Shown here in pieces: positions 8,105 to 23,928 of a stretch of DNA of 30,741 bases. The DNA is from a virus (lineage: Duplodnaviria > Caudoviricetes): the IMG/VR virus record IMGVR_UViG_3300032216_001053, positions 1-30,741 of that record; one strand, given 5' to 3'. A program made the translations under genes and the position numbers. Each line of letters begins with the position of its first letter. The stretch's first letter is position 1. Below the pieces are notes generated by a model. It searched no databases and was not told the DNA's origin. It saw only the letters and a program-made list of their open reading frames with translations.

Positions 8105-8251
8105 TTGAGTAGTGAACGTTCGTATAGCTATATGTGTGTAATTGTTGGAGTGGATTAGAGCGTATTAGGGCGGCTAGGTGCGTCCACGTATTATGGGGGT
8201 GCGGGTATCGTGGGGTCGGCATTCTACGATTCGAGGTGGAGTGGCGCAGTG

Positions 8252-8908
8252 TCAGTGCTTCTTACCAGTTCCTAATGAGTTCGCATGCTTGCTACTGTTA
8301 AGTAGTGACAACGATGATTGCAACTCAGCCTTGAGACTGTCCACGTTGATCTCTTCTACCTTCTGCTCTACCTTATCCACAAACATGCCAACTGCTTTGC
8401 CCATTAGTTCTAATGCTCTCAGCTTGGCACTCACTGGAACGTCCTCTGCATCTGCATGCTTGAGTAGTTCTTTCATGACGTGTCTACGTGTCACTGCTTG
8501 GTCAGTAAGGATCATCTCTTTTTTAGCCTCAAAGAACGGCTCTAAAAGTAAAGTGATTCGACTATCTCTCATAAGCTTGTTCGCATTGCTAATCATCGTG
8601 TTACGTGATGATCCAGTAGGCTGATAAGACTTCTCATATGCTTGCAATGGTGTGTGACCTTCCATCACATACTGAGCGAATAGCATAGCCTTTGGGCTTA
8701 GTCTTTTATCTCTGCCTGATGCCTCTACGTTATCTTGATCCTTCACACCTCTTGGTAGTCCATTACGCTTTACCTTTATCTCTAATGCATCAATAGCTGA
8801 CCGCATCCCTTCGGGGTCTTGCCCCGCTTTTAATGTGCTATCACTGTTCGCATTTTCTGTGCTATCGCTCAATGCATGCTGATTAATTACTTGACTGGCT
8901 TGTTTCAT
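8252..8908 (-). CDS. terS: Terminase small subunit (probable)
   Basis: RLSPKAMLFAQYVMEG...AYEKSY HTH region and C-terminal KLRALELMGKAVGMF, both TerS-like; upstream of TerL. Confidence 0.75.
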   Translation of the reverse strand: MKQASQVINQHALSDSTENANSDSTLKAGQDPEGMRSAIDALEIKVKRNGLPRGVKDQDNVEASGRDKRLSPKAMLFAQYVMEGHTPLQAYEKSYQPTGSSRNTMISNANKLMRDSRITLLLEPFFEAKKEMILTDQAVTRRHVMKELLKHADAEDVPVSAKLRALELMGKAVGMFVDKVEQKVEEINVDSLKAELQSSLSLLNSSKHANSLGTGKKH

Positions 8909-8948
8909 GTCGATCCTTAAGTTGGTTTGTACTCATGTATTCCAATGC

Positions 8949-8977
8949 ATGTTGACTGTGTAAACACTGCATGTCAA
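8949..8977 (-). promoter_or_regulatory. Putative sigma70 promoter for terS
   Basis: TTGACA-N17-CAACAT on the - strand, 40 nt upstream of the terS ATG. Confidence 0.5.
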
Positions 8978-9397
8978 TAAGGTTCGTGCATCGTTCACTG
9001 ATCGTTCTCAGTACTGTCAGTTGACTGCTCCCAGTGCATGCGAGTGTGACTTCCTATATCTAGTACCATCACATCCCCTTATCACTAGACCGCAAAGTGT
9101 TTAAACCGACTGTCGTGCTACGCACAGGCTCACCCGATGAGCCACCCGATTGCTACTATTTATTCAATGCACTGGGTTTATGTACATGCCTCTAAAACGC
9201 ATCAGATCGCTCTGTATTCAATTTGATGCTTGTATGGTACTAAGCCCTATGCTAGTACGAGATCTCTAGTAATCCAGTAACCATGCGGGTTAGCGGGCGG
9301 TCAAGGCTCATTGCCTGAGCCATTGCCAATACAAGTCTTATATAAGACGTAAGACTAATACCTGAGTAAGTTGTGTGGGATTAAACAACACTGATGC

Positions 9398-9426
9398 TTG
9401 CATCGTTTAAATCTGCATGCTAACAT
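9398..9426 (+). promoter_or_regulatory. Early sigma70 promoter
   Basis: TTGCAT-N17-TAACAT with extended -10 TG; the spacer contains GTTTAAAT. Confidence 0.7.
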
Positions 9427-9432
9427 CTAGCC

Positions 9433-9780
9433 TGTTGTTGCAGTAAAGCGGTGAGTAACCACCGACACGTCAGAGCCTAGTGCGTGGATAAAGTAAAGAG
9501 GTGATCGCTGATACCAGTCAGATCTAAAACGAGGGTAGTCAATATCAGGACTTAAAACTGTGCGTCAAAGGCTAGTAGGCTCTGCCCCCTGATGGGATCA
9601 GGCAACCGAACGAGATGCGAGACGTGGCAAGCAACGATCCTACTGTGACAAGGTAGGGGAGCGCAGTCAGGGAGCGATCCCTAGTTCTTTGAGATTTAAT
9701 CTCATTGGGCTTTAACTAGACACCCACCTATCCTATCGGGGTCTGACCTAAGTCCAAGAGGATGCAATCTCGCATCTTTT
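9433..9780 (+). ncRNA. Structured ncRNA or 5' leader, family unrecognised
   Basis: Gene-free stretch after the promoter with nested helices: 9449-53/9460-64, 9471-79/9576-84, 9508-13/9543-48, 9588-93/9597-602, 9613-22/9768-77, 9639-43/9653-57, 9669-82 (GCGA tetraloop), 9681-86/9714-19, 9690-9704. Confidence 0.6.
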
Positions 9781-9795
9781 ATGGAGGCTTAAACC

Positions 9796-9954
9796 ATGTC
9801 TATTCAATCACCAATAGCAATCGTTGAGATCTTTAATCGTCATTCTTACTACCCTACTGACGTAGAGGGTTTCCATGTAGTTCATTTTGAAGAGCAGTAT
9901 CAGCCTGATACCAAGGTTGGTGCTATTCCCGCAAACTTTTTCTTTTCACTGTAA
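9796..9954 (+). CDS. First early small protein (52 aa)
   Basis: GGAGG RBS; MSIQSPIAIVEIFNRHSYY...; not in the ORF track. Confidence 0.65.
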   Translation: MSIQSPIAIVEIFNRHSYYPTDVEGFHVVHFEEQYQPDTKVGAIPANFFFSL

Positions 9955-9964
9955 GGGGGCTTTT

Positions 9965-10219
9965 ATGAGCGCATTAGTACGCTTTGTAGCAGAAAAAAAT
10001 GGATGGAATGCCATTGTTGGTAGACCACCCTATGACTTGTCTGATCCCGCTGATCGTCAGCGGTTAGCAAGGCAAGTTGACTTTGAACTATCGCCTGAGA
10101 ATTTGACATGCGATGGTGAGTTGTCTCGCAGTCAGGTACAGGCTAAGTACAACCGCCTGATCAAGGTGTCACGTGAGTTGATCAAACTTGATCCGCTCGT
10201 TCAATTTGAGGAGGTGTGA
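9965..10219 (+). CDS. Conserved phage hypothetical protein (LSPENLTCDGE motif)
   Basis: Start re-called at ATG 9965 after GGGGGCTT; motif is familiar from phage early genes. Confidence 0.8.
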   Translation: MSALVRFVAEKNGWNAIVGRPPYDLSDPADRQRLARQVDFELSPENLTCDGELSRSQVQAKYNRLIKVSRELIKLDPLVQFEEV

Positions 10220-10314
10220 TGGATCACCTTATCAGGCTTGCAGTTGGCATCGTTGTTGCAGTGGTGGTGGGCAATATTTTGATTGCCATTGCCAATCATT
10301 TTTTAATTCACTAA
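10219..10314 (+). CDS. Single-TM membrane peptide (31 aa)
   Basis: MDHLIRLAVGIVVAVVVGNILIAIANHFLIH; GAGGAGG RBS and TGATG overlap. Confidence 0.6.
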   Translation: MDHLIRLAVGIVVAVVVGNILIAIANHFLIH

Positions 10315-10325
10315 TCGGAGGCTTT

Positions 10326-10424
10326 ATGCAATATCAAGGTAAGTTGTGGGATCGTTACCAGTGTTACTTGGCTTATACGGATGATCCCCATCCTAAAAGC
10401 TTTGACGAGTGGCTTAACTCGTAG
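10326..10424 (+). CDS. Small protein (32 aa) ending KSFDEWLNS
   Basis: GGAGGCTT RBS, ATG 10326. Confidence 0.65.
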   Translation: MQYQGKLWDRYQCYLAYTDDPHPKSFDEWLNS

Positions 10425-10498
10425 CAGTGCCCATCTCAATGCCTCCCTTGGGGGGCATGAGGATGCGCCTTGCATCTAACTTTTTTGGAGGTTCAATC

Positions 10499-10756
10499 AT
10501 GGCAAAAATTCCACATGGCATTTGGAAAAAAATTAATTTTCAAAAGGGCTTGGAACACGTTGAGTATTTCGGCATAGGCAACGACAGGGTTACCTATCAG
10601 ATTGAACGTGTGATTGGCAACCCGCTTTATAAGTGGGTTGCAAAGCACCCAACCAATTACACTGTTTTCTTTTTTGGAAAAACCTTGGATGAGGTCAAGC
10701 GCAAGCTTGATGGCATTCCAAAATTAACATCAAACTTAGGAGGGCTTTATGCCTAG
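10499..10756 (+). CDS. Hypothetical early protein
   Basis: GGAGG RBS before ATG 10499. Confidence 0.7.
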   Translation: MAKIPHGIWKKINFQKGLEHVEYFGIGNDRVTYQIERVIGNPLYKWVAKHPTNYTVFFFGKTLDEVKRKLDGIPKLTSNLGGLYA

Positions 10757-10853
10757 AAATTTTGTAGCTAAACATGCAAAGCGTTGCGGTGCGGGTAGCC
10801 ATACCCCCCGCAAATACAGTCGTAAAACTAAACATAAAGGAGTTGCACAATGA
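10749..10853 (+). CDS. Basic 34-aa peptide, ArfA-like
   Basis: MPRNFVAKHAKRCGAGSHTPRKYSRKTKHKGVAQ; GGAGG RBS; ATGA overlap with the next gene. Confidence 0.6.
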   Translation: MPRNFVAKHAKRCGAGSHTPRKYSRKTKHKGVAQ

Positions 10854-11413
10854 GTACTCGTGAAGAGTGGCTTAACTCAGCCGTAACCGAGTTGCGTTCC
10901 ATATTCGATGCGAACGGCTTTCCATTACCCGCACACATTCGTGTGACGTGCGGTTTCCCATCCAAACGGGCACGTAGCCTGTACAAATCCATCGGTGAGC
11001 ATTGGTCTTCCAGTGCATCGGACGATGCCACCCACGAGATCTTGATCTCGCCTGTAGTTGACGATCCTGTCGAGGTATTCGCAGTGCTATGCCACGAGTT
11101 GGCGCACTCTGCGACTGATGGCGATGGGCATCGTGGTCGCTTTCCCTTGTGCGTTAAAAAGCTTTGGCTTGAGGGCAAGCCGACTTCCACTGTTGCGGGT
11201 CAGAAATTCAAGGATGCCTTTAAGGATCTGATCGAATCATTGGGCGAGTATCCGCATGCTCGTTTAAATGTGGGTAGTACTCATAAAACGCAGTCGACAC
11301 GTATGCTCAAGGCATCGTGCCCACACTGCGGTTACACGATTCGCCTGTCTAGTAAATGGGCTGATCAAGGCTTACCTGATTGCCCGATTGATGGCACTCA
11401 GTTTTCACTTTAA
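10850..11413 (+). CDS. SprT-like Zn metalloprotease with C-terminal Zn ribbon
   Basis: HELAH...H zincin motif; CPHCG...CPID. Confidence 0.8.
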   Translation: MSTREEWLNSAVTELRSIFDANGFPLPAHIRVTCGFPSKRARSLYKSIGEHWSSSASDDATHEILISPVVDDPVEVFAVLCHELAHSATDGDGHRGRFPLCVKKLWLEGKPTSTVAGQKFKDAFKDLIESLGEYPHARLNVGSTHKTQSTRMLKASCPHCGYTIRLSSKWADQGLPDCPIDGTQFSL

Positions 11414-11431
11414 TTTCACAGGAGGCTTACC

Positions 11432-12913
11432 TTGAATATCGAAAAAACAATTTCACTTACACCTTTGGGTGTTCTCAATACTGTTCTCGCTGAGAACAAT
11501 GTCATCACCACCACCAACAAGACTGAGGCAGTCTCTGCGGTGATCGGCTTGATCAACAATGGCATCGTCAGTGTTGATCAGGTTCGTGCCAAGAAAGCCT
11601 CGCCTGTCGCATCTGTGGGCATTCCTGATGACGTGCGTAAGCAGATCATCGAGGCGCAAACTCAGGTGACCAATGCTCTCGCTCAGGTTGAGGCAATCCG
11701 TAAGGTTGCCGATGCAAATCTTGATCGTGCGCTCAGTCAATCGACACAGATCGATAAGCAGTTTAGCGATTTGGCTACACGTTTAAATGCTAAGGTCGAT
11801 GCGGTAGAAACACCTGATGCCAAGTTGATTGCCGACACTATTCGCACTGAGGTGTCCAAGCTATTTGATTCTTTTCGAGCCAGTTCCCCTAAAGAAGTCG
11901 TAGCCAAGGTTGCTCAGTCAATCCCTAAAGTTAAACGTAAGCCAGTGCGTGACGTGTTTGCGGGTCAGCAGTTGTCTTATGACTTCGAGGGTGAGCATGT
12001 CGACTTCAGCGGTCTTGAGGTTGAGGTATGGGACGATCCTAATGCGCCTGAGTTGGTTGCTGATTACGTTTTTAATCCACGTAATCTGCATCAGGCTTTA
12101 TGCGCTCTTGACGATTCACTACCCGATAACGTGTGGCTTGCGGGTGAGCGTTCCACTGGTAAAACTGAGTTCGTAAATCAGATTGCTAATCGCCTTGGTC
12201 GCAGATTGTTTCGTGTAAATTTTGACGAGGCAATGGAACGTGCTGAGTTTATCGGTGCTGACAAAATCAAAGCGAACGCTAAAGGTGTTAACGAGTGCGT
12301 GTTCGTTGAGGGTGTGATTGCCAAAGCAATTCAACATGCGGGTGCAATCATTTTGCTTGACGAGTTGGGCTTTGCTAGAGCGCAGTCTATTGCTACTCTG
12401 CATGCCCCTACCGAGCGCAGTCCGCATCGTTCAATTGTGATTGCTGATTCGGGCTTGCGTATTCCTGTTGCATCGCATGTTGCATTCTTTTGCGCTGATA
12501 ACTCGAACGGCTATGGTGATCAGTCAGGTAACTTTGCGGGTGTGCGTGATCAGAACACTGCATTCATTGATCGCTTTAGCTACACGCTTGAGTTCAATTA
12601 CTTGCCACAAGCTGAAGAGACTGCATTGATCAGCAAGCGCACAGGCTTGCCAGTTGATGCGACTGAGGTGCTAGTCAAGTTTGCTAATGTTGCACGTGAA
12701 AAAGCACGTGCGGGTATTCTTACTCAGCCACCAAGCTTGCGCTCGTTGTTTGCTTGGGCACGTGCTATCACCAAGGGTGTGCCTGTTGGTCTTGCGTTTA
12801 ATAGCGCAGTGGTCAATAAGTATCCCGCTGATTGCGAGGCTGAGTTGCGTGGCATTTATAGCGCAACGATTGACGTTAACAATTTGAAATCTTATTTATC
12901 TAAGGGGGTTTAA
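11432..12913 (+). CDS. MoxR/CobS/CbbQ-like AAA+ ATPase
   Basis: Walker A GERSTGKT, Walker B IILLDE, sensor ADN, AFIDRF; N-terminal coiled coil; TTG start after GGAGG. Confidence 0.9.
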   Translation: MNIEKTISLTPLGVLNTVLAENNVITTTNKTEAVSAVIGLINNGIVSVDQVRAKKASPVASVGIPDDVRKQIIEAQTQVTNALAQVEAIRKVADANLDRALSQSTQIDKQFSDLATRLNAKVDAVETPDAKLIADTIRTEVSKLFDSFRASSPKEVVAKVAQSIPKVKRKPVRDVFAGQQLSYDFEGEHVDFSGLEVEVWDDPNAPELVADYVFNPRNLHQALCALDDSLPDNVWLAGERSTGKTEFVNQIANRLGRRLFRVNFDEAMERAEFIGADKIKANAKGVNECVFVEGVIAKAIQHAGAIILLDELGFARAQSIATLHAPTERSPHRSIVIADSGLRIPVASHVAFFCADNSNGYGDQSGNFAGVRDQNTAFIDRFSYTLEFNYLPQAEETALISKRTGLPVDATEVLVKFANVAREKARAGILTQPPSLRSLFAWARAITKGVPVGLAFNSAVVNKYPADCEAELRGIYSATIDVNNLKSYLSKGV

Positions 12914-13911
12914 TGCTTGCTATTCATGCTAAACGTGGTGTCGAATCGACACTCGAACGTATCTTCAAAAACACTGGTCGTGCATTCGATAGGCTAGAGT
13001 TTTTGTGGAGCGGTACTACTGCGGGTATTTCATTTGAGCGCAATGGCAGTGCGTTACATGCCAAGGTAATCTTTCCCGCAATCAATGAAGTTGCTCAGGT
13101 ATCACGTGAGCGTTTCAATAATCTGATTGCTTATGCAGTGCATGAGTTGGGTCATGCATGGTTCACTGACAATCAGCCTTGGGACGTTGCAAGACGTGAG
13201 CATGGCGGGTTCGTTAGTAACTTGATCAATGGGCTTGAAGATCCTCGCATCGAGCGTAAAGTAATCGAATCAGGTTACGCTCCCAATAGCAAGGCTCTCT
13301 TCGAGGATTTGATTAACTCAGTACTTGGTAAGGATGGGTACGTTGATGCGCTTGATATTAAGAACGTGCCGTTCCTACTTGCCGTAGAGGGTAGACGTTT
13401 AAATGGCTATGCAATCAATGTGCCAAGCATCGTTAATGATGCGCCTTGGTCTGCTGATTTGCACTGGGCATTGGCACAGGCGCAGTCTGCACGTAACACT
13501 CAGCAGATCGTTGACGTTGCGCTTGAGTTGTATAAGCGTTTGCAACAAACCTCAGAGCCTGAGCCACCTCAGCCACCTGATGATGAAGAGCCACCAGTTG
13601 GCGGTCAGCCTTGTGATGATGGTGAGCCTACTGAGGGTGGTGATCAGCCCAGTGATGAAGAGGGCGAGGGCGAGGGAGAGGGTAATGGCGAGGGCAACAA
13701 GCCTAGCGATAAGCCTTCTGATAAGCCTTCTGATAAGCCTAATGACAAGCCTAACAAAGGTCGTGGCAAGTCTGACTTCGAGGGCGGTCGTGATGTTGAG
13801 CCTAGCGACTTTATCGAGCGTGAGATGAAAGACGAATCGTTTACTGTCGATAGTGGTAAGGCACGTCCATCAGTTGGTAAACCTAAGTATGCAATTTTTG
13901 AATGGAGTTAA
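12913..13911 (+). CDS. CobT N-terminal-like protein (HExxH) with acidic linker
   Basis: HELGHAWFT and NGLEDPRIER motifs, followed by an E/G/D/P-rich low-complexity tail. Confidence 0.8.
   Translation: MLAIHAKRGVESTLERIFKNTGRAFDRLEFLWSGTTAGISFERNGSALHAKVIFPAINEVAQVSRERFNNLIAYAVHELGHAWFTDNQPWDVARREHGGFVSNLINGLEDPRIERKVIESGYAPNSKALFEDLINSVLGKDGYVDALDIKNVPFLLAVEGRRLNGYAINVPSIVNDAPWSADLHWALAQAQSARNTQQIVDVALELYKRLQQTSEPEPPQPPDDEEPPVGGQPCDDGEPTEGGDQPSDEEGEGEGEGNGEGNKPSDKPSDKPSDKPNDKPNKGRGKSDFEGGRDVEPSDFIEREMKDESFTVDSGKARPSVGKPKYAIFEWS
13699..13757 (+). repeat. Coding 12-bp tandem repeat (KPSD/KPND)
   Basis: AAGCCT(TCT/AGC/AAT)GAY repeated about five times. Confidence 0.8.
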
Positions 13912-13912
13912 T

Positions 13913-14719
13913 ATGGCTTTCAATAAAGCACAATGCGAATCAAATTTTTCTTTTCACTTTGGCAGTCAGCCTAACGGCTTGGGTGCTACCCGCTCTAACA
14001 TCATGCGCCTGTTGCGTTCGGTTGACTTGATGGGTTGGTCAACGCATGAGGAATCAGGTCGCTTAGATCGCAAGGCTTTCACACGCTTTGCTACTGGCGG
14101 TACGAACGTCTTCAGCAAACGTCACCACATCGAGGCTCAGAAGTCTGCGGTCAGCGTACTGGTTGACTGCTCAGGTTCTATGAGTACTGATGGTCGTATA
14201 CAAACCGCTCAAGCGGTATGCATTCAGTTGGCTAAGTTGCTTGATAAGTCTAGCGTTGCATACAACGTGACAGGCTTTTGCGGTGGCAAGGGTAATGACT
14301 ATGCATGGACTAGCAATACGCTCAAGCATGACTTGGTAACACCAATTGAGCGCACTACGTTCATACCATTCAAGACGTGGAAAGATTCCTTAACCAAGGC
14401 ATCAGCCAAGCTTGGATCGATGCATGGTTGGGCGCATGCTAGTACCCCTGATTATTCATCTATCTCGTTGACACTGGAGGATCTAGCGAGACGTGAAGAG
14501 AATCGTAAGATACTGTTCTTATTGACTGATGCCGATGGCTATGACAAGGTTCACATGCAACATCTTCAAGGGGTTGCTGATAAGCTTGGTATTAAAATCA
14601 TAGCTATAGGTATTGGCTACACTAAGGTTGCTCAGTGCTTTGACAACGCACAGAACGTGCAAAATGTAGAGGGTCTTGCATCTGCATCGTTCAACAAGTT
14701 GCTCAAAGAGTTACGTTAA
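13913..14719 (+). CDS. VWA-domain protein (CobT C-terminal-like)
   Basis: SGRLD, MIDAS DCSGSMS, TPD, LLTDADG, IIAIGIG; GGAG RBS before ATG 13913. Confidence 0.88.
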   Translation: MAFNKAQCESNFSFHFGSQPNGLGATRSNIMRLLRSVDLMGWSTHEESGRLDRKAFTRFATGGTNVFSKRHHIEAQKSAVSVLVDCSGSMSTDGRIQTAQAVCIQLAKLLDKSSVAYNVTGFCGGKGNDYAWTSNTLKHDLVTPIERTTFIPFKTWKDSLTKASAKLGSMHGWAHASTPDYSSISLTLEDLARREENRKILFLLTDADGYDKVHMQHLQGVADKLGIKIIAIGIGYTKVAQCFDNAQNVQNVEGLASASFNKLLKELR

Positions 14720-14751
14720 TGCGGGGGGCGATGCCCCCCATTGGGGGTGAT

Positions 14752-14970
14752 ATGCAAGACGATTCTGACCAGTTCCCTGACCTGATCGAAAGCGTGGGAA
14801 ATTCCCTCACTGGGAAAGATGCTGACACTGTTGTTACAGTGTTGGCTTTGTTGTTGGCTAACGCAAGTTGCATGGGCGGTTTAAACGCTGAACATGTGCT
14901 TAGTTATGTTGCAAGGGTTATGCGTGGAGTTTACGCAGAAGTTGATCATGAAGATGAAACAATCCATTAA
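14752..14970 (+). CDS. Hypothetical protein
   Basis: ATG 14752 after GGGGGTGA; ends in ETIH. Confidence 0.65.
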   Translation: MQDDSDQFPDLIESVGNSLTGKDADTVVTVLALLLANASCMGGLNAEHVLSYVARVMRGVYAEVDHEDETIH

Positions 14971-14987
14971 TAAAGAGAGGCTTAATA

Positions 14988-15233
14988 ATGAATGTACTTG
15001 AACTTGAAAGACGTTTTCCAAAACACGTTGTAGATCACATGCTTGATGTTATGTATTCCACTCCTGTAAGTGATTTAGTAGATATGGTTTTTGAGGGTAT
15101 GAGTGATGCTCAAATAAACGAGTGGGCAAAAGGTATAGAACAGGATATTTTTGATGAAATTGCTGATGATGAAACAGATGAAGAAGATCCTGTGCATCCA
15201 TCCTTTGATCCAGTATTTAAAAACGAAAGGTGA
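14988..15233 (+). CDS. Acidic hypothetical protein
   Basis: GAGGCTT RBS; 81 aa. Confidence 0.7.
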   Translation: MNVLELERRFPKHVVDHMLDVMYSTPVSDLVDMVFEGMSDAQINEWAKGIEQDIFDEIADDETDEEDPVHPSFDPVFKNER

Positions 15234-15235
15234 TT

Positions 15236-15433
15236 ATGTCAAAAATTAAATCATGGAAGTTGGAGTTAACTTGGGATGACGGCACAGTCAATGATGTAAG
15301 TAACTATGTGCCTGTGTATACCAGTAAAGCAGTAGAAGAGTTCATCGATTATTGGGAAGAGCGTTACAACGATGATGACTATGGCGATGATGAAGAGGAG
15401 GAGTTACGCTCAGAAAGGGCTTGCAATGAATAA
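15236..15433 (+). CDS. Acidic hypothetical protein
   Basis: AAGGTG RBS; tightly packed in the operon. Confidence 0.65.
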   Translation: MSKIKSWKLELTWDDGTVNDVSNYVPVYTSKAVEEFIDYWEERYNDDDYGDDEEEELRSERACNE

Positions 15434-15608
15434 CTTATCCGCTGAATGCATCGAGCAAAACGATGCCAAGGAAAAGGTGTTGCATCTTATTCGTGGTGAC
15501 ATTGATGGGATGAAATACAAAATTAAATTTAGTGCGCCATGTCCAATGACTGCAATTGAAATTGCACGTAGCGTACCAATTGCGTACTGGGAGCGTGATG
15601 AAAATTAA
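15426..15608 (+). CDS. Hypothetical protein
   Basis: Overlaps both neighbours. Confidence 0.6.
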   Translation: MNNLSAECIEQNDAKEKVLHLIRGDIDGMKYKIKFSAPCPMTAIEIARSVPIAYWERDEN

Positions 15609-16273: not shown

Positions 16274-16278
16274 TAAAA

Positions 16279-16315
16279 CCCCCCTTTGACTTCGGTCATC
16301 GGGGGGATTTTTTTT
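16279..16315 (+). terminator. Rho-independent terminator
   Basis: CCCCCC..TGAC-TTCG-GTCA..GGGGGG followed by an 8-T run. Confidence 0.9.
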
Positions 16316-16398
16316 GCTTCAGGATTTGTTAGCCGTTTAAACTTTCTAACTCTAACCAGCAGGTACGCCAGAATGTACTGTTAGTTTAAACGTGAAAC

Positions 16399-18096
16399 TT
16401 AGAATGCTTCTTGCTCGTAATATGTGCCTGTGACCTTGTTGTAACCCAAAGTTGTTTCCCCTTGTGTACCGATCCAACGATAGCGACACTTCCATACCGC
16501 AAGTTCTACCCCATGATCCTTGGTTCTGTGGATGGTAATACCGCAGTCAGCCTTAGCCCACCATGCCATCGATCCACTGATTGCCATGCCATCAGGTCTT
16601 GGAAGATCCATTCCTGAGCGGGTGATCTTGGAGGGATGCGCCACAAACCAAATATGCACCCCATAAGCTTTAGCAAACGCTTGGATGCGGGTCAACATTC
16701 CTGATATAAATTCATGCTCCGCTTGACCGCCTTTGTTTTCAATGTAGTTATAAGGGTCGATTACTAATCCCCTGATACCCATGCGTACCACCGCAACCTT
16801 TGCTCGCTCTAGGATTGATTCAATCGTGGCGGGTTCTGCTCCCTCTGAATCCAAGAAAAGAAAATGATTCTCAACGAATTCAAATGCCTCTTTCTTTTCA
16901 TCTTCACTCATGCGATTACTGCCATCAAAAAATCTTTTTTCTTTGTAGATCTCCATCAAGCGTGAGATATGCACTTCGGGTTGATTCTCAAACGAACACA
17001 ACGCAAACTTCCAATCATGCGCCTTGGCAAGGTTAGTCATTAGTTGATCTACAAAGTTAGACTTACCGCAAGATGGATAGCCTGTCACGATAGTGAGTTG
17101 TCCTTGAGCCACTGTGTAAATTTCATCTACGTTTGAGTAACCTGTGGAAATTCCTTTTCCCGTACCTTTTCCCCATAAGTCATTTAAACGATCAGAGAAC
17201 TTGCTGGCGGAGGACAAGCCCGCTACTGGGTACGGCTCTGCCTTATCAATAATCTGTTTAACTAAGTCCGCTCCCTCTTTTAAAAAGACTTCGTTCAAAT
17301 CTTTGTAGTCAAACTTAGCAATACGGCACTTGTCTTTACCAATCCTTCGAGCCAGTTCCTCAGCAAGAGCCTGACCCGCAGTGTCGGTGTCGGTTGCAAT
17401 CGTGACGTAAGGCACTTTGTTCAATATGTCAAACGCATTCCAAACAAAAGAAAATTTCTTATCCTCTGAGGCATCCACTTTGCCATCTGAAACTTTCATG
17501 GGCGCACCGCTTGGCACTGAGAGTACATTCTTTACTCCGCACTCCATCAAAGTTAATGCATCAATCTCGCCCTCAACAATGACCACTGGCTCGTTGACAT
17601 CGATGTTATCAATCCCAAAAAAATCCTGTGCGCCACCTAAATCTTGTACAAAATCTTTTTCAACAATACTGCGATATTTTGCTGATACATATTTGCCGTC
17701 TCTGAAATATGGAAAACCGATGGCATCTGTTTTCTTTTCTAACTTTTGAAAATATTTTTGTGCGGAGAATAATTTCATAACCTCCGCAGTTTTTGCGGAG
17801 ATCCCCCTTGATTTTAAAAAGTCGTAATGTTGTGTTTCTAGTTTTGTTGTGTCAAGATTTCTCATTGGTATCACGTTATTCTCCGCTCGATAGATAGGTT
17901 GGTTAGTATATTTTTTAAATGGCACAAAGCCCGCAGTCTGACAGTGATGGCAATAATATTTCCACCCATCATCCTTGCGATGTATTGCTAAATCTTTGAT
18001 ATTGTATTTTTTCCTTTCCTGTGAACACTCAGGGCAATGAACACGATCTGAATCGTTAACACGCAAAGATGAAACTAATTCTGCAACAGAATTCAT
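16399..18096 (-). CDS. Bifunctional DNA primase-helicase (T7 gp4/Twinkle-like)
   Basis: Zn finger CPEC...CHHC, TOPRIM VEGEIDAL and DTD, SF4 helicase GYPSCGKS, VIDPYN, VAHP. Confidence 0.95.
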   Translation of the reverse strand: MNSVAELVSSLRVNDSDRVHCPECSQERKKYNIKDLAIHRKDDGWKYYCHHCQTAGFVPFKKYTNQPIYRAENNVIPMRNLDTTKLETQHYDFLKSRGISAKTAEVMKLFSAQKYFQKLEKKTDAIGFPYFRDGKYVSAKYRSIVEKDFVQDLGGAQDFFGIDNIDVNEPVVIVEGEIDALTLMECGVKNVLSVPSGAPMKVSDGKVDASEDKKFSFVWNAFDILNKVPYVTIATDTDTAGQALAEELARRIGKDKCRIAKFDYKDLNEVFLKEGADLVKQIIDKAEPYPVAGLSSASKFSDRLNDLWGKGTGKGISTGYSNVDEIYTVAQGQLTIVTGYPSCGKSNFVDQLMTNLAKAHDWKFALCSFENQPEVHISRLMEIYKEKRFFDGSNRMSEDEKKEAFEFVENHFLFLDSEGAEPATIESILERAKVAVVRMGIRGLVIDPYNYIENKGGQAEHEFISGMLTRIQAFAKAYGVHIWFVAHPSKITRSGMDLPRPDGMAISGSMAWWAKADCGITIHRTKDHGVELAVWKCRYRWIGTQGETTLGYNKVTGTYYEQEAF

Positions 18097-18111
18097 TAAG
18101 CCTCCTACTTA

Positions 18112-18417
18112 CTACTTGGTTTTTGGTTTATTTATTTTAACAGTGTGATTACTGTTGCGGGTAAAAGATCTGTTCGCTGATTTGGATTTGATCTTTAAAT
18201 TTTTAGGTGAGTTAGTTCCACCCTTAGATAGAGGCACGACATGATCGATGTCTTTGCCCTCACGCATATCCGCTTTTCCGTTGTGGTTTTTGTCCACACC
18301 TTTTTTATCTACTGCGTATCTTGCTCTTGCACGTGCATCACGTTCGGGTTGCTCACCTCTTGCACGTTGTTGTTGATATTCTTTTTTATATGGTCTTGGT
18401 TTGTTGACGTAAGGCAT
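18112..18417 (-). CDS. HNH endonuclease
   Basis: DIDHVVPLSKGGTN...NL...N motif. Confidence 0.85.
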   Translation of the reverse strand: MPYVNKPRPYKKEYQQQRARGEQPERDARARARYAVDKKGVDKNHNGKADMREGKDIDHVVPLSKGGTNSPKNLKIKSKSANRSFTRNSNHTVKINKPKTK

Positions 18418-18445
18418 AAGTATTCCTATATATATTGTTTCTATG

Positions 18446-18648
18446 TACTGCCCTCTTGGAGGAGGGCAGACCTAGCCTAAACTAGGTTGCCTTCACAATC
18501 TATGCCCACGTTGGTATCGATTGACCCGAAAGACTTTTCGTGCAAAGGGTTCTTTCTTCGCCACCCTTTTCTGATCTCTAATGCACTAACCCTAGTATCA
18601 GCAATAACTGTTTCACCCCTAGTGTTTTTCATCGCTGAATGAAACAGG
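18446..18648 (-). ncRNA. Structured leader or ncRNA upstream of HNH and primase-helicase
   Basis: Seven near-contiguous stems (+ coordinates): 18448-69, 18470-87, 18496-523, 18527-40, 18544-69, 18571-601, 18608-47; begins just after a promoter. Confidence 0.55.
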
Positions 18649-18653
18649 ATTCC

Positions 18654-18683
18654 ATGTTAATGAAGTTCGTATACTTTTTGCAA
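18654..18683 (-). promoter_or_regulatory. sigma70 promoter for the replication operon
   Basis: TTGCAA-N18-TAACAT on the - strand; same -10 as the early promoter. Confidence 0.6.
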
Positions 18684-18808
18684 GAAGTTTTGGTGCAAGC
18701 ATGGGTAAATCCTAATAAGAAAGTTTAAACATGTTTGCCACAGCCAGGCGCAGCGCTTCGCAGCCGGGCTAACAGCGTAAAGTTTAAACATCCATGTGCC
18801 ACGAGTCC

Positions 18809-18835
18809 AAAAAAAGAGGACACCGAAGTGTCCTC
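18809..18835 (-). terminator. Rho-independent terminator
   Basis: GAGGACAC-TTCG-GTGTCCTC-T7 on the - strand. Confidence 0.85.
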
Positions 18836-18954
18836 AAACCTAACCTAAAGGAAATACACATGAAACAATTCCATTATTAAATACTTTGTGTATAATTACA
18901 ACAACTTTCCTCAAGAATTAAGCCTCCTGATAAAGTTAGACCAGTAGGTCGGAG

Positions 18955-18983
18955 AGCCACCCTTAAAAAAGGTGGCTTTTTTT
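18955..18983. terminator. Terminator-like hairpin at the end of the rusA-like gene
   Basis: AGCCACC...GGTGGCT followed by a T run on +. Confidence 0.55.
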
Positions 18984-19341
18984 ATACCCTTGGAGACACT
19001 TCTATCTCGCAACGAGGGCTTTCCTTGTCCACTCCCATCCAGTAAATATGCTTTTCTTTTACCTGACGATCATTGGCATATGCCACGTCTTGCAACAGAT
19101 CTAGAATCAGACTTTCATCTAAATCAGGTCTGCGAGATGCGTACCAAATACGAATCGTTACCACCACGTCCCCAGAAAACATTTGTTGTTTCTGGTTATT
19201 TGCTTGAAGTTTAAACGCTTTAGCATACGACAATGCCTTTGCAGACTTGATAAACATTGACTTACCGCCCGCAAAGACTTGCCTACGTGAATTTGCTTTA
19301 CTGGCGGGTTCGCCAAATATTTTTAAGGATAGTGTTTGCAT
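18982..19341 (-). CDS. rusA: RusA-like Holliday junction resolvase
   Basis: GEPASKAN, RRPDLDES..LDLLQ...NDRQV, PRCEIEV; likely start ATG 19341. Confidence 0.8.
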   Translation of the reverse strand: MQTLSLKIFGEPASKANSRRQVFAGGKSMFIKSAKALSYAKAFKLQANNQKQQMFSGDVVVTIRIWYASRRPDLDESLILDLLQDVAYANDRQVKEKHIYWMGVDKESPRCEIEVSPRV

Positions 19342-19364
19342 TTTTAAAAAAGTTGTATTAGTAT
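19336..19364 (+). promoter_or_regulatory. sigma70 promoter for the recombination/middle operon
   Basis: TTGCAT-N17-TAGTAT, 30 nt before the TTG start at 19394. Confidence 0.65.
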
Positions 19365-19393
19365 TGAAGTTCGTATTAAAGAGGAGGCTTAAG

Positions 19394-20287
19394 TTGAAGA
19401 TTACCAATATACATAATGTACCCGAAACACTAGTGGCTCTTGCTAGTAGAGACTACTACACAAAGGGTGATTCTGACTATTCAGTTACAGAAATCATATC
19501 CCCGCCACGCATACAGAGGCTCAGGCGCAAGCATTACGCTGAGATTGAGCAAGATGTATCCGATATGCTTTGGATGCTCCTAGGCACTGCTCTGCACGTT
19601 GTAGCAGAACGCTCTGAAGTGGAGGGTCATACCAATGAAGAACGTCTATCCGTTGAGGTCAACGACATCATTCTCTCAGGTGCTATTGATTTGCAAAAGA
19701 ACGATGCAGATGGCATTACTATCACCGATTATAAGTTCACATCCGCATGGGCATTGATGCATGACAAGCCTGAGTGGGAGCAACAACAAAACATCTACAA
19801 GTATCTTGTTGAACGTGTCAAGAGAACTCCTGTCAAGGCTTTAAAGATCTGTGCTTTTGTGCGGGATTGGTCACGCAGAGAGGCAGATGTCAAGCCTAAC
19901 TATCCGCAATCTCAAATCCAAGTAATCGACATCCCGATGTGGACATTTGATCGTGTTGAGCATTTCATCAAAGAACGTATTGAGATGCATCGTGATTCTA
20001 AAGTGAGTGCTGATTGGAACGAGGAACTTCCATTGTGTACCGAAGAGGATCGTTGGGTACGTGAAACTAAATATGCAGTAAAGAAAGAGAATCGTAAAAC
20101 TGCGGTGCGTGTGTTTGATACACACGAAGAGGCTCAGGAATTACTTGCGGAGATGCCTGAGAAAGATAAAGCTTTTATTGAAATTAGAAAAGGTGAGGCA
20201 GTACGTTGTACAGGAAATTATTGCGGAGTATCGCAATGGTGTAGTCAGTATCAAGCAACATTAAAAAAGGAAATAGAAAATGGATAA
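19394..20287 (+). CDS. PD-(D/E)XK exonuclease (Cas4/RecB-like, Cys cluster)
   Basis: GTALH, E, SGAIDL, TDYK, Q..IY motifs; C-terminal RC...YC....WC; GAGGAGG RBS and TTG start. Confidence 0.88.
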   Translation: MKITNIHNVPETLVALASRDYYTKGDSDYSVTEIISPPRIQRLRRKHYAEIEQDVSDMLWMLLGTALHVVAERSEVEGHTNEERLSVEVNDIILSGAIDLQKNDADGITITDYKFTSAWALMHDKPEWEQQQNIYKYLVERVKRTPVKALKICAFVRDWSRREADVKPNYPQSQIQVIDIPMWTFDRVEHFIKERIEMHRDSKVSADWNEELPLCTEEDRWVRETKYAVKKENRKTAVRVFDTHEEAQELLAEMPEKDKAFIEIRKGEAVRCTGNYCGVSQWCSQYQATLKKEIENG

Positions 20288-20672
20288 TGAAATTAGAAGT
20301 TTTATAAAAATTGGTGCGGGCATAGCTTGCGTAGCAATTCTTGGTGTCGGTGGGTGTATGAGTGGTATGCCGATGTATAACGTCTACCATCAGAGGATGG
20401 AGGGCGAGGCTGAATTAGCTAAAGCAAATTATTCAAAACAAGTTGCAGTTCAAGAGGCTCATGCCAAGATGGAATCTGCCAAACTTTTAGCCGATGCCGA
20501 AGTGTTGAGAGCAGAGGGTGTTGCAAAAGCAAACAAAATTATTGGAGATTCACTTACTAACAATGAAGCTTACTTACGTTATTTGTTTGTCAACAATCTT
20601 GAACACACAAGTAATCAGGTTATCTATGTACCAACAGAAGCAAACCTACCCATTTTAGAAAGAAGAAAATGA
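20280..20672 (+). CDS. Membrane-anchored coiled-coil protein (SPFH C-terminus-like)
   Basis: N-terminal TM helix, AEGVAKANKII, VIYVPTE. Confidence 0.7.
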   Translation: MDNEIRSFIKIGAGIACVAILGVGGCMSGMPMYNVYHQRMEGEAELAKANYSKQVAVQEAHAKMESAKLLADAEVLRAEGVAKANKIIGDSLTNNEAYLRYLFVNNLEHTSNQVIYVPTEANLPILERRK

Positions 20673-21286
20673 AAGTGTATAAAAAACTAATTGATGCCCG
20701 CATTAAGTTGCAAGCAACAGAGTTGACCAAGTCAGGTCATAACAAGTTTGCGGGCTATAAGTACTTTGAGTTGGGAGACTTTCTCCCCGCAGTGCAATCA
20801 ATTTTCAACGAAGTGGGATTGATTGATGCTATATCTTTTACCGAAGATTTAGCGACTATGGTGGTCTATGATGTGGAAGATGGAAGTTCAGTTACCTTTA
20901 CTTCCCCTATGGGCACTGCGAACCTCAAAGGTTGTCATGAAGTTCAAAACATTGGTGCTTGCGAAACATATCAACGTAGGTATTTATATACCACTGCGCT
21001 TGCTATTGTTGAGCATGATGCCCTTGATGCGGTTACTGGATCTGCGCCAGTAGAAGTCAAACCAGTAGCAAAAATCGAACCAGTTCCTAAGAAGATAGAT
21101 GAGGATCTTGAGCCATTAGCCGAAGTATTGATCACCTTTGGTGAAACGTGCGAAGACTTAAAAGAATTGTCTAGCTTTTGGAAAAAGAATCAGGCGGGAA
21201 TCGACAGAATGAAGTCGCAGAAACCTGAGTTATTTAAAACAGTGCAAGATGCTTTTGCACAATATAAAGCTAAATTTAAGGAGTAA
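20669..21286 (+). CDS. erf: ERF-family ssDNA annealing protein
   Basis: KSGHNKFAGYKYFELGDFLP and QNIGACETYQRRY motifs. Confidence 0.88.
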   Translation: MKVYKKLIDARIKLQATELTKSGHNKFAGYKYFELGDFLPAVQSIFNEVGLIDAISFTEDLATMVVYDVEDGSSVTFTSPMGTANLKGCHEVQNIGACETYQRRYLYTTALAIVEHDALDAVTGSAPVEVKPVAKIEPVPKKIDEDLEPLAEVLITFGETCEDLKELSSFWKKNQAGIDRMKSQKPELFKTVQDAFAQYKAKFKE

Positions 21287-21289
21287 TAC

Positions 21290-21574
21290 ATGGCTTACGA
21301 TAAACCATACGAAGAAAAACCAAACACAGGATCATTCTTTGCTAACAAAACAAAAACCAATCCTAAAGCCCCTGATTATCGTGGCACAGTCACGTTGGAT
21401 CTAGGCGATTACGAAGTCATCAATAACACCATCAAAGTGGAGTTGGCGGGATGGAAACAAACATCCAAGGCGGGCAATACTTATTTGCAATTAAAAGCAC
21501 AAAAGCCAAGAGAGCAAGGTCAGGCACAACCACAACCTAAATCAGAGGATCTAGACGATGACATCCCCTTCTAA
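21290..21574 (+). CDS. Single-stranded DNA-binding protein
   Basis: NPKAPDYRG...LAGWK; acidic DDDIPF tail. Confidence 0.8.
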   Translation: MAYDKPYEEKPNTGSFFANKTKTNPKAPDYRGTVTLDLGDYEVINNTIKVELAGWKQTSKAGNTYLQLKAQKPREQGQAQPQPKSEDLDDDIPF

Positions 21575-21836
21575 ATTTCCATTAAAGAAAAGACGTGGTA
21601 GACCTTTGGGTTCTACAAACAAAAAGAAACCCGCAGCGGCACGTAAGTCGTTTAAACAGCCTAATGCCGCAGCACGGGAAGAAAAATTGTTGCAAGCCCA
21701 TATTGAATTAATGGTTAAAGCTAGTGATCTACGCAAAAACATTGCCAATCTTGAACACCAAGCAATTGGTTATCAAGCGGTGATTTCTTACCTTGAACAT
21801 CAATTGGAAAAAACAAATGAACGCTCTTCAGTTTGA
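21558..21836 (+). CDS. AT-hook-containing basic protein
   Basis: KKRRGRPLGSTNKKK plus a coiled coil. Confidence 0.7.
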   Translation: MTSPSKFPLKKRRGRPLGSTNKKKPAAARKSFKQPNAAAREEKLLQAHIELMVKASDLRKNIANLEHQAIGYQAVISYLEHQLEKTNERSSV

Positions 21837-22230
21837 GGCGATAAAGGTTGCTCTTAAGCAAGACAAAACTGGATTTGTTTTAACTCTGAATATCCACCCT
21901 GATGAGATCCCCGATGAACTAATGCGGGATTTTGTTGGGGCTAGGTATGGAGTTGCGATGGTTCGGATTGAGGACAACGAAACTGCCAAGCACTATGACA
22001 ATCGGGTTAAGCAAGCGGGCATCTTAGGTAAAACTAGGGTGTTCCATATTTGGCTTAATAAAATACATGGATTAGATATTGATGGCGAAGATGATGCGGT
22101 TGAAGCTATCCGCACGATCTGTGACATTGGCTCTCGCACTGAGTTAAACGGAAACAAGGTAGCACAACAAAAATTTGACAAGATGTTAGCGGAGTACGAA
22201 AAGTGGAGCGAAGAAGATGAGCCGTTTTAA
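21817..22230 (+). CDS. Conserved phage hypothetical protein
   Basis: QFEAIKVALKQDKTG...IHPDE...SRTELN. Confidence 0.75.
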   Translation: MNALQFEAIKVALKQDKTGFVLTLNIHPDEIPDELMRDFVGARYGVAMVRIEDNETAKHYDNRVKQAGILGKTRVFHIWLNKIHGLDIDGEDDAVEAIRTICDIGSRTELNGNKVAQQKFDKMLAEYEKWSEEDEPF

Positions 22231-22528
22231 AACTGTTGTACCACTCATGGTTTATGTTGATCCATCGGAAAGAACCAAGATTCAAAACTATGCAAAAAAA
22301 GAAAAGACCAACGTCAGTCAATTGGCGAGGGAAGCTTTCCGAATGCGTATGTCTGGTGGTGACGACCCATTTAACCAAGGATTTAATCATGGTTTAAACG
22401 AGGCATTAAGAATTATCAACAGCACGGATGGAGCAAAGTTAGCATTTCCATCGGGAAAAACTGTAGCGAAGTTATTAACCGATGAAATTGAAAACTTTTT
22501 ACGTGAAACTAAGGATGCAAAATCGTGA
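22217..22528 (+). CDS. Putative ribbon-helix-helix DNA-binding protein
   Basis: PLMVYV...KIQNYAKKEKTNVSQLAREAF pattern. Confidence 0.6.
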   Translation: MSRFKTVVPLMVYVDPSERTKIQNYAKKEKTNVSQLAREAFRMRMSGGDDPFNQGFNHGLNEALRIINSTDGAKLAFPSGKTVAKLLTDEIENFLRETKDAKS

Positions 22529-22722
22529 GCGATGAAGACTTTATTGATGCCTGTGCAATGTTAAGTTTGGTAGGAATTATTATCAGAGGAAACATTCTAT
22601 CTAACCACCATGAAGATGCAATGGAGGCTTATTCAAGGGCGCAAAAAATGTTGGAATATCGAAACATGAAAGATGAAGAAGGTATTGTGTCTATTAAAAA
22701 AAGAACGAGGAAAGCTAAATGA
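22525..22722 (+). CDS. Hypothetical protein
   Basis: GTGA overlap, AAGGA RBS. Confidence 0.65.
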   Translation: MSDEDFIDACAMLSLVGIIIRGNILSNHHEDAMEAYSRAQKMLEYRNMKDEEGIVSIKKRTRKAK

Positions 22723-23012
22723 AAAAAGTTTTATTTGTTTTAATGTTTTATGTATTGCAAACACAGGCACAAGTGCCTTGGAAAGACAATGCATATAACT
22801 ATGATGTAAGCCAATACAATCTTGCGAATACCACGTATGACTTTAACAACTCGCCTTACAACTTTAAGAACTCTGAGTACAACTACAACTCAACCAATGG
22901 GGTTTATGACAATGGTAAGCGTGTTGGTTACGAAGTTACCAATTCTTATGGGGTAACTAACGTGTTTGACAACAATGGCAACCGCATAGGACATACACGT
23001 GAACGTCATTGA
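22719..23012 (+). CDS. Secreted protein with YN/YD heptad repeats
   Basis: Signal peptide; repeated N-S-x-Y-N-F/Y units; DNNGNRIG. Confidence 0.7.
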   Translation: MKKVLFVLMFYVLQTQAQVPWKDNAYNYDVSQYNLANTTYDFNNSPYNFKNSEYNYNSTNGVYDNGKRVGYEVTNSYGVTNVFDNNGNRIGHTRERH

Positions 23013-23928
23013 GTTTGGCGATTGCCGACAAATTATGAGCAAATGGCGGGATGAAGGCATCAAGGTACAAACTTGTGTGACTTCTCCCCCTTACTTTGGA
23101 TTAAGGGACTATGGAAACAAAGGACAGATTGGACTTGAAGCTACTGTGGCAGAGTACGTTGATGCTATTGTGGATGTTTTTGACCATGTTTGGGATTTAC
23201 TTGATGATTCGGGTACTGTTTGGTTAAACCTTGGAGACAGTTATTACAACTATCGACCAGGAAAAGGGCAGTCGCTGGTTAAGCAAACTATTGCTAATAC
23301 TGAACAGGACTTACCGCAAAATTGCGCTAGACGTGGGAATAGGCAAGAGGGTTTGAAAGAAAAAGACTTGATTGGTATTCCTTGGCGGGTAGCATTTGCA
23401 TTGCAAGCCAAGGGATGGTATTTGCGCCAAGATATTATTTGGCACAAACCTAACCCCATGCCTGAGTCTGTGCGAGATAGGTGTACAAAAAACCATGAAT
23501 ATATTTTTTTATTATCTAAGAATTCTAAATATTATTTTGATAACGAGGCTATTAAAGAGCCAGTTAAAGAAGATTGGGGAACAAGAGATAGATCCGATGG
23601 CAAATACCACAACGAAGGATCGGGTCTTAGCCCCCATTCGGGACTAGAAAAGTCTTATGAAACGGCTAATAAGCGGTCTGTATGGACTGTTACTACTAAG
23701 CCTTTTAAAGGGGCACACTTTGCGGTATATCCCCCTGAGTTAATTGAGCCTTGCATTATGGCGGGTAGTCGGGTCGGTGACATAGTGCTTGATCCTTTTA
23801 TGGGATCTGGAACTACGGCTGCCGTTGCTCAACGTTTAAACAGGCTATACCTTGGCTGCGAGTTAAACGAAGATTACAAAGTGTTACAAAAAGAAAGACT
23901 TAAACAACCATCATTGGAGTTACTATGA
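22999..23928 (+). CDS. DNA methyltransferase, beta class (N4-cytosine or N6-adenine)
   Basis: TSPPY catalytic motif precedes LDPFMGSGTT SAM-binding motif; HFAVYP. Confidence 0.95.
   Translation: MNVIEFGDCRQIMSKWRDEGIKVQTCVTSPPYFGLRDYGNKGQIGLEATVAEYVDAIVDVFDHVWDLLDDSGTVWLNLGDSYYNYRPGKGQSLVKQTIANTEQDLPQNCARRGNRQEGLKEKDLIGIPWRVAFALQAKGWYLRQDIIWHKPNPMPESVRDRCTKNHEYIFLLSKNSKYYFDNEAIKEPVKEDWGTRDRSDGKYHNEGSGLSPHSGLEKSYETANKRSVWTVTTKPFKGAHFAVYPPELIEPCIMAGSRVGDIVLDPFMGSGTTAAVAQRLNRLYLGCELNEDYKVLQKERLKQPSLELL

Follow-up and report, generated by a model that had tools for sequence, protein, structure and literature searches.

The stretch of DNA analysed here (30,741 nucleotides, positions 1 to 30,741 of IMG/VR virus record IMGVR_UViG_3300032216_001053; hereafter the window) has the look of a part of a lytic podophage genome, and from a sharp edge beside its gene for the terminase small subunit (TerS) it has been purged of short DNA words which are likely targets of restriction-modification (RM) systems of its host. 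The purge was found at the same position beside TerS in related loci, with a different mosaic of lost words in each relative, and it changes amino acids in the proteins encoded there. Residual copies of the lost words lie 14–36 bp from copies of a repeated 8-letter palindrome, GTTTAAAC, which is present in great excess and is referred to below as the anchor. The explanation that we favour as a whole, with rather more confidence than doubt, is that the first-entering end of the podophage genome has been purged of many RM targets, and that the later survivors persist mainly under a protein bound to GTTTAAAC. The edge and the two zones of the window are as follows.

8089..8104, no strand assigned: host-type parS, a perfect palindrome close to the purge edge on its left
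8159..8250, no strand assigned: candidate left genome end and G-rich element, placed by fine profile, shared record starts and contig-end rate
8175..16355, no strand assigned: fully purged zone, defined by word counts and shuffles
16356..23250, no strand assigned: partly purged zone with 12 residual SCNGS sites, each beside an anchor (11 perfect, one matching at 7 of 8 letters)

By computational count, positions 8171–16355 contained zero GCNGC, CCNGG, CCDGC and GCHGG, being bounded by a GCGGC at 8170 and a CCAGC at 16356, and exactly 12 non-exempt SCNGS sites occurred from 16356 to 23250. Both figures agree with the original prediction, made by eye from the letters alone, as does the exempt status of CCCGC/GCGGG (22 copies within 8175–16355). 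A dinucleotide model expected 34.2 GCNGC and 15.9 CCNGG in 8175–16355, where neither was present. Shuffling of the annotated genes of this zone (300 shuffles per type) gave 66.7 ± 7.3 non-exempt sites when codon order was permuted (minimum 45) and 33.0 ± 4.5 when synonymous codons were exchanged (minimum 20), vs 0 in the real genes; with shuffles never reaching zero, codon or dinucleotide bias, which had been named in advance as a possible undoing of the claim, does not account for the depletion. The head genes were indeed free of the purge, with 75 sites vs 77–82 after shuffling. In the proteins of the zone, Ala-Ala (0 vs 15.9 expected) and Pro-Gly (0 vs 6.0) were absent as foreseen, and so was Gly-Pro (0 vs 6.0). 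From 8175 to 23000, Ala-Gly was encoded with GCG first in 18/18 cases and Pro-Ala with CCC first in 8/8, again as the eye had read it, while overall Ala and Pro codon usage was the same across window zones.

The purge is not confined to SCNGS, as had been supposed. Twenty-eight of 512 strand-merged 5-mers were missing from the fully purged zone, including (copies outside the zone in brackets) CCAGA (37), ACAGC (21), CGGAA (13), ACCGT (13), CACGG (12) and GACTC (11), and the zone was also devoid of GGNCC, GGNNCC and CGNCG. Four words, CCGG, GGCC, CGCG and CGNCG, were nearly missing throughout the whole window.

Related loci were fetched (n = 108), of which 35 included parS together with 3.5 kb or more of the zone; 19 non-redundant ones, the window counted in, were pooled, their AAA+ ATPase proteins being 51–70% identical to that of the window. 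The boundary was seen again in related loci, in line with the claim of a positional, selection-driven purge from ~8.1–8.2 kb that is common to relatives. When profiles from 10 records were pooled with distances measured from parS, the observed-to-expected ratio (O/E) of the word panel was 0.82–1.05 in the 10 kb to the left. To the right it was 0.26, 0.15, 0.11 and 0.17 successively over 0–8 kb, 0.32–0.38 over 8–14 kb, 0.53–0.72 over 14–20 kb and ~ 0.85 from 24 kb. Of the sharp edges originally described, the left one therefore stands (word density drops ~ 150–200 bp right of parS), whereas the right side recovers stepwise. Position decides rather than gene class, since TerS is purged (O/E 0.22) and the adjacent large subunit gene, TerL, is not (O/E 0.87). 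The original reading was thus right about the purge, and had seen neither the parS at its edge nor the GTTTAAAC anchors that explain the residual sites.

Many words rather than one were lost. Over the 19 pooled loci the zone contained 1 GCWGC vs 281 expected, 0 GGACC vs 133, 1 CCWGG vs 162, 8 CCAGA vs 181, 10 GCSGC vs 122, 41 GAAGC vs 248, 48 CCTGC vs 249 and 68 CCAGC vs 182. In the head genes of the same loci GGACC and CCWGG were partly depleted and the other six words were near expectation (CCAGA, for instance, 291 vs 234). Every relative had a panel of its own, with CCAGC, CCTGC, CCGGC and CCCGC kept or lost independently: locus L023 kept CCAGC (23 vs 16) and lost CCTGC (1 vs 13), L039 lost CCAGC (0 vs 13) and kept CCTGC (20 vs 16), and L107 kept CCGGC (14 vs 5) and lost CCCGC (1 vs 4). 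The codons of Ala-Gly and Pro-Ala followed the panel, being GCG/CCC only in the window, GCC/CCG only in L107, mainly GCT in L023, L053 and L015, and with GCA included in L052, L039 and L006. Because the component words segregate independently among relatives, SCNGS is best seen as a chance union of several specificities. The main idea of the original prediction, a single host defence reading degenerate SCNGS, draws on the absence of 7/8 strand-merged SCNGS words from the window's zone. It is nevertheless extremely improbable, as words outside SCNGS are purged equally hard, and it would need a differently relaxed version of one enzyme in each relative's host. The option that the prediction had put in brackets, several RM systems, fits the mosaic; GCWGC, GCNGC, CCWGG and CGCG are described in published sources as methylation motifs. 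Scans for 3+3 and 3+4 gapped motifs in the 19 loci found no bipartite Type I motif purged beyond the head-gene control, although a motif private to one relative would escape them. No T7-like Type III strand bias was seen, both strands being purged in 0–8 kb and both used elsewhere. A sub-clade (L060, L064, L067, L071 and L107) lacked GATC and AGCT in the zone and in the head genes examined, unlike the window, which suggests a different host group.

The purge also changes amino acids. At the column following the HExxH motif of the SprT-like protease, Ala-Ala was present in 7/7 unpurged rows and in 9/30 other rows, the window having Ser-Ala, and two columns of the AAA+ ATPase behaved in the same way. 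At four control columns of TerL, outside the zone, Ala-Ala, Pro-Gly and Gly-Pro were kept in 23–24 of 24 sequences. The commonest replacement was a transversion from Ala to Ser. Across SprT, AAA and CobT combined, Ala-Ala numbered 0 vs 202 expected in the 20 loci without any GCNGC (a result that follows from the definition of this class), 60 in the nine loci lacking only GCWGC, all with GCC or GCG first, and 113 in the seven unpurged loci. The claim that conserved residues are rewritten therefore holds for the SprT column and the two AAA columns, and fails for the two peptides originally offered as examples, QNTAFIDRF and GYPSCGKS. Whether purged or not, each of the 36 AAA rows has N-T/S-A-F and each of the 20 helicase rows has G-Y-P-S, and because unpurged relatives, too, are without Ala-Ala or Pro-Gly there, neither peptide is evidence of rewriting.

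A virion DNA terminus is likely to lie near 8159, judging from the ends of assembled sequences. Four records (L041, L046, L047 and L014) begin at one homologous word corresponding to 8159 in the window (homology judged by eye). Among 61 AAA loci that include TerS, 22/42 true left contig ends fell in the 700 bp to the left of TerS; contig ends numbered 0.67 per kb there, and 0.12 and 0.05 per kb on the two sides of this stretch. The related Caulobacter phage RW was deposited with an identical 2,940-bp terminal repeat containing TerS; how its ends were set is not stated in the accessible part of the RW report (PMC11053796). Early-type genes beside the candidate end make it likely that this end enters the cell first. 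In having sites missing from one stretch, probably end-proximal, and present elsewhere, the window matches leading-region site avoidance. A scan for promoters and terminators at the edge gave results at chance level.

The anchor GTTTAAAC occurs 17 times in the window (1489 to 29200) vs 0.8 expected from base composition, and 17–47 times in each of 14 relatives, a 20- to 45-fold excess family-wide (in genome G001, 40 copies vs 3.2 expected under an order-3 model). Copies are densest in the first 25 kb, and within genes only two of the three frames are used. Phage RW has none and other viral loci 19 in 819 kb; RW shows strong over-representation of another word family, ACCTCAGC and its overlaps (34 vs 4.1 expected).

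Survival of purged words was tightly linked to these anchors. Of the window's 12 residual sites, eleven are 14.5–25.5 bp from GTTTAAAC and the twelfth is 19.5 bp from a 7-of-8 match, the bases within 35 bp of an anchor making up 4.2% of the window. In 10 records, the 8–16 kb zone had 50 sites per kb at 10–20 bp from an anchor, 36 at 20–30 bp, 15 at 30–40 bp and 1.2–1.4 beyond 100 bp, with control words and late genes flat across anchor distance. All nine records tested leaned towards anchor-near sites (cluster-level p from 0.09 to 5e-6), and anchor-near sites numbered 193 vs 30 (maximum 45) for 22 shifted-anchor controls. For GCWGC, 48/56 residual sites in relatives were near an anchor (5–9% of bases) vs 18/454 in late genes, the share being 28/28 in 8–16 kb; 18 further loci gave 13/14, many of them in the same island. 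One-mismatch versions of GTTTAAAC did not attract sites, and unpurged relatives showed no link between sites and anchors. The proportion of anchors with a neighbouring site was 13/86 in the first 8 kb (background 1–5%) and 103/120 from 8 to 22 kb (background 13–49%). A narrow literature search turned up no report of restriction sites that survive next to a dispersed octamer. Residual sites of the window cluster at the following places.

16335..16391, no strand assigned: island I1, non-coding, two GTTTAAAC around CCAGC, GCAGG, ACGCC and CCAGA
18723..18789, no strand assigned: island I2, two GTTTAAAC around two CAGCCNGG repeats, with 5/12 residual sites; at the same place in relatives
21633..21673, no strand assigned: four residual GCNGC sites (Ala-Ala runs of the open reading frame (ORF) at 21558–21836), which flank the GTTTAAAC at 21650

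Two GCTGC sites likewise flank the GTTTAAAC at 23834, inside the methyltransferase gene. Compared with shuffles, I1 had 32 forbidden words vs 28.7 (11 islands) and I2 95 vs 59 (17 islands), and this combination of shuffle level and 1.6-fold excess fits tolerance of sites better than their use as bait. The CAGCCNGG repeats of I2 are ~ 20 bp apart between divergent replication genes, and relatives without CCWGG have CCSGG instead; I2 is possibly an origin or control element. The ORF at 21558–21836 (plus strand) encodes a basic protein with a predicted coiled coil, its own gene containing an anchor, and with an RGRP stretch which we take to be AT-hook-like.

These observations could be joined in the following way. 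Virion DNA would end near 8159, and that end would enter the cell first. The first 8 kb would be naked, making every target in them lethal, and targets would be lost even where this meant giving up Ala-Ala, Pro-Gly and Gly-Pro. We consider this part of the scheme, taken jointly, to be quite probable. A protein from the purged stretch would then bind GTTTAAAC and block host enzymes within ~ 35 bp, so that needed codons or signals could be kept beside an anchor. The scarcity of anchor neighbours in the first 8 kb and their abundance at 8–22 kb fit the delay expected if the binder is encoded in the first 8 kb, and we lean towards a protein footprint of some kind at GTTTAAAC. Beyond ~ 22–24 kb general protection, whether by the phage's methyltransferase, by shutting off the host or by a nuclease inhibitor, would lift the pressure. 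The genes and other elements that bear on this scheme, and the remaining features of the window, are listed below.

8252..8908, minus strand: TerS, a packaging gene, yet purged
10850..11413, plus strand: SprT-like zinc metalloprotease with HExxH; conserved His-Ala-Ala changed to His-Ser-Ala
11432..12913, plus strand: AAA+ ATPase of CobS/MoxR-like type, its N-terminus a small helical domain; putative GTTTAAAC reader
12913..14719, plus strand: CobT-like N-terminal half plus vWA half, both partnering the AAA+ ATPase
14719..16273, plus strand: variable small ORFs, several acidic (pI 4.1–4.8), with no match to a known anti-restriction family
16399..18096, minus strand: primase-helicase without Ala-Ala or Pro-Gly
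18524..18646, minus strand: Rfam Betaproteobacteria-1 RNA motif (RF02932)
22999..23928, plus strand: N4/N6 DNA methyltransferase with SPPY motif
29596..30723, minus strand: C-terminal LPD38 part of a giant polyvalent protein, likely ejected; the other candidate protector

The first-8-kb genes common to all covering records were those for TerS, SprT, AAA and the CobT/vWA halves, and the SprT–AAA–vWA module is our tentative candidate for the anchor-binding step. A fuller version, in which SprT, the AAA+ ATPase and vWA load at GTTTAAAC as a site-addressed anti-restriction system and cover or strip host enzymes within ~ 35 bp, would give a genome three regimes (no targets, anchor-side targets only, free use), and we regard it as rather doubtful; the same doubt attaches to its corollary that divergence of AAA in one relative went along with a drift to a variant word. 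In the complete relative G017, AAA and the two CobT halves are missing, as is most of SprT; its 64 kb contain 6 anchors, and the purge comes to an abrupt stop at 8 kb. Another, G019 (L374–L376), has a divergent AAA–vWA module (AAA 28% identical), 5 anchors and an excess of TGTAAACA (19 vs 4.9), and a third, G020, has a divergent AAA, yet 24 anchors; a link between AAA and anchors, resting on these three genomes, is suggestive. The modelled N-terminus of the AAA protein consists of four short helices followed by a long one (predicted local distance difference test score, pLDDT, 70.9). Other candidate binders are the giant LPD38/ART-PolyVal protein, found in 9/9 relatives scanned, LexA-like and Arc-like proteins, or a host protein. 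No known anti-restriction family was matched among the early ORFs. The ORF at 15759–16040 (plus strand) encodes an acidic, all-helical protein of 93 amino acids (model pLDDT 76.9) with a weak Gam-like feature score (0.80), which fold searches failed to back, giving no significant fold match and no Gam row. As to the later protection, 7 purged records have the methyltransferase at 23 kb, purged G002 and the four controls are without it, and several words recover there; the enzyme may supply part of that protection. As the sole cause of the right edge it was discarded, given that CCWGG, GGNCC and CCTGC do not recover there and that G002 is without it.

Several observations weigh against this scheme. 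Anchors are densest in the first 8 kb, precisely where few have a neighbouring site (13/86), and they are kept by unpurged relatives too, so that shielding may be a by-product. Some words disregard them (GAAGG 16/111 near an anchor, GAAGC 26/79), and the GCWGC peak at 14–21 bp (22/28) is narrower than would be expected from plain tolerance. Because sites are shared among related genomes, pooled counts are not independent, with ~ 12 separate GCWGC gene contexts. The AAA link comes down to one loss, G019 keeping a divergent AAA with 5 anchors and G020 having 24, and family searches matched no DNA-binding family to the AAA N-terminus. As regards the terminus, several assembled contigs span 8159 with no depth step, early hints in depth were not reproduced (assembled contigs only being available), head-side contig ends are scattered with no common base, and G/C runs at the candidate end could break assemblies.

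The 8089–8104 palindrome is one that we take to be the canonical chromosomal parS; this 16-bp sequence was conserved within 2 mismatches in 45 fetched loci and is present in about 9,500 IMG/VR stretches. ParB loading there and spreading to one side could be imagined to make the zone, given that parS lies 70–200 bp from the edge and shares with the broad purge a single, weakly supported clade (quick tree, support 81). However, L061, L062 and L067 are purged without a clear parS, L031 has parS with a narrow purge, and 13/80 sampled parS viral loci with flanks, which belong to the wider superfamily and have parS near packaging genes, show no one-sided purge of GCNGC, CCNGG or GGNCC. A protein coat would also protect sites rather than select against them. 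We therefore consider ParB spread very unlikely and, in view of the exceptions in both directions, parS a boundary marker and not a cause. Import of the early block from a phage of another host, with re-equilibration still under way, has an equally low standing. Module exchange does occur, since the pairwise identities of AAA show only a moderate correlation with those of TerL (Spearman 0.53, 30 loci) and the closest neighbours of the window change by gene, but the same edge recurs in the 19 non-redundant loci with their divergent AAA proteins, words come back gradually over 15 kb, each syntenic relative has its own subset purged at that place, and independent clades that differ in word panel share the position of the boundary. 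Least probable of all, and close to negligible, is mutation or codon bias without selection: many lost words are reported cytosine-methylation targets (GCWGC, CCWGG, GCNGC, CGCG) and could decay by deamination, but the effect is positional, codon-preserving shuffles never gave zero, the zones use Ala and Pro codons alike, and the prevailing Ala-to-Ser changes are transversions.

Two further explanations, both improbable in our estimation, deserve somewhat more weight. The phage might be avoiding methylation, in that leading DNA marked by one host would be attacked by modification-dependent nucleases of the next, with anchors keeping methyltransferases off. This would give the same words in the same geometry, and published precedents are a modification-dependent nuclease family cutting methylated GCNGC (BisI) and the avoidance of host methylation by T5-like phages (PMC10644984); one nuclease, however, explains a dozen separately segregating words less simply than a dozen RM systems do. 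Alternatively, anchor-side sites might be kept as bait or as a composite signal of anchor plus C-rich word 15–20 bp off, for which speak the density at 10–20 bp in the 8–16 kb zone, three times the late baseline (~ 17 per kb), the excess of forbidden words in I2 and its conserved CAGCCNGG repeats. Against it, I1 stands at shuffle level, late anchors are without such flanks, and many paired sites code for Ala-Ala, in keeping with the recruitment of an anchor beside a needed codon pair.

On the minus strand the window encodes the portal, TerL and TerS; then follow the SprT-like protease, CobS-like AAA+ ATPase, CobT/vWA halves, primase-helicase, RusA, exonuclease, ERF, SSB and N4/N6 methyltransferase. 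The closest cultured portals, at 34–47% identity, are those of Pelagibacter phages HTVC027P and HTVC023P, Roseobacter phages CRP-901 and CRP-902 and Caulobacter phage RW. Labelled source samples of related records are lake and freshwater metagenomes, and complete relatives are 58–64 kb in size. The Betaproteobacteria-1 RNA motif, present also in 3/5 distant relatives, is a weak hint to the host. Terrimicrobiaceae was rejected as host, the sole genome-collection match being a 4.6-kb contig, probably mis-binned, in a metagenome-assembled genome with a different parS of its own. The window scan found no tRNA genes. Between TerS and the early genes (8908–9965) there is 1 kb without long ORFs and with many short hairpins, purged as the genes are. 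Giant proteins of 2,550–3,430 amino acids with ART-PolyVal, LPD38 and often DUF7178 are encoded in L109 (8470–17853) and eight other relatives, the window having only the C-terminal end.

Avoidance of sites at one genome end is established biology; the surprising part is the anchor-linked survival, whose protein and purpose we infer. In the first-step-transfer DNA of T5/BF23 (Tequintavirus), restriction is reported only if sites lie in the first-entering ~ 10 kb, later sites being protected by an early product (PMC10644984). The window resembles these phages in avoiding targets in what is probably the first-entering stretch. It differs in being podovirus-type and of ~ 60 kb, in a purge that fades over 15 kb more, in the dozen-plus words lost, asymmetric ones included, and in residual sites tied to an octamer, two-step entry being a T5 feature. 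Murciavirus (Autographiviridae) shows experimentally supported leading-region avoidance of one bipartite Type I motif, and its authors predict that fixed ends are needed (PMC12455610). Selection on a sub-genomic segment, first-injected there and probably so here, is common to both, whereas the window, studied from sequence alone, loses 4–6 bp words, has no bipartite motif purged beyond control and encodes no RNA polymerase. Genome-wide avoidance of RM sites in lytic phages, mostly of orthodox Type II sites, has been surveyed (PMC6286503). The window-wide near-absence of CCGG, GGCC, CGCG and CGNCG matches the phages of that survey, in contrast to the purge of asymmetric CCAGA, CCAGC, CCTGC, ACAGC and GAAGC on both strands and only near one end, judged against the available part of that report.

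The window is like HTVC023P/CHUG-type podoviruses and phage RW in portal identity, a GroES-like gene and the order TerS–TerL–portal. It is unlike RW, which has neither GTTTAAAC nor a comparable purge; the SprT–AAA–vWA module and the anchors mark a freshwater family. Anti-restriction proteins of phages include DarA/DarB of P1 and Gam of lambda. Ocr of T7 is a further one (PMC12455610). In the proposed scheme later DNA would likewise be protected by a protein that is made early or injected, but the known proteins act without a dispersed DNA word, whereas here a shield of ~ 35 bp round a repeated octamer is proposed. Published precedent for a host-type parS in a phage is found in Bacillus phage phi29 (PMC2731898), likewise a chromosomal ParB site in a lytic phage; no ParA or ParB match was found among the window's 55 scanned ORFs. 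The window differs in having one putative ParB site, beside TerS, and a host that is probably no spore former.

The purge extends a known strategy to an abundant group of uncultured podoviruses, marks the likely entry end of their genomes and lists the probable restriction words of the host, and it shows, with matched controls included, that pressure at the DNA level rewrites conserved residues. If the protein footprint is true, it would represent a new, local and sequence-addressed form of protection, bearing on how later-entering phage DNA escapes restriction, and the role proposed for the module would, if true, give the common phage AAA–vWA ('CobS/CobT') pair a testable job.

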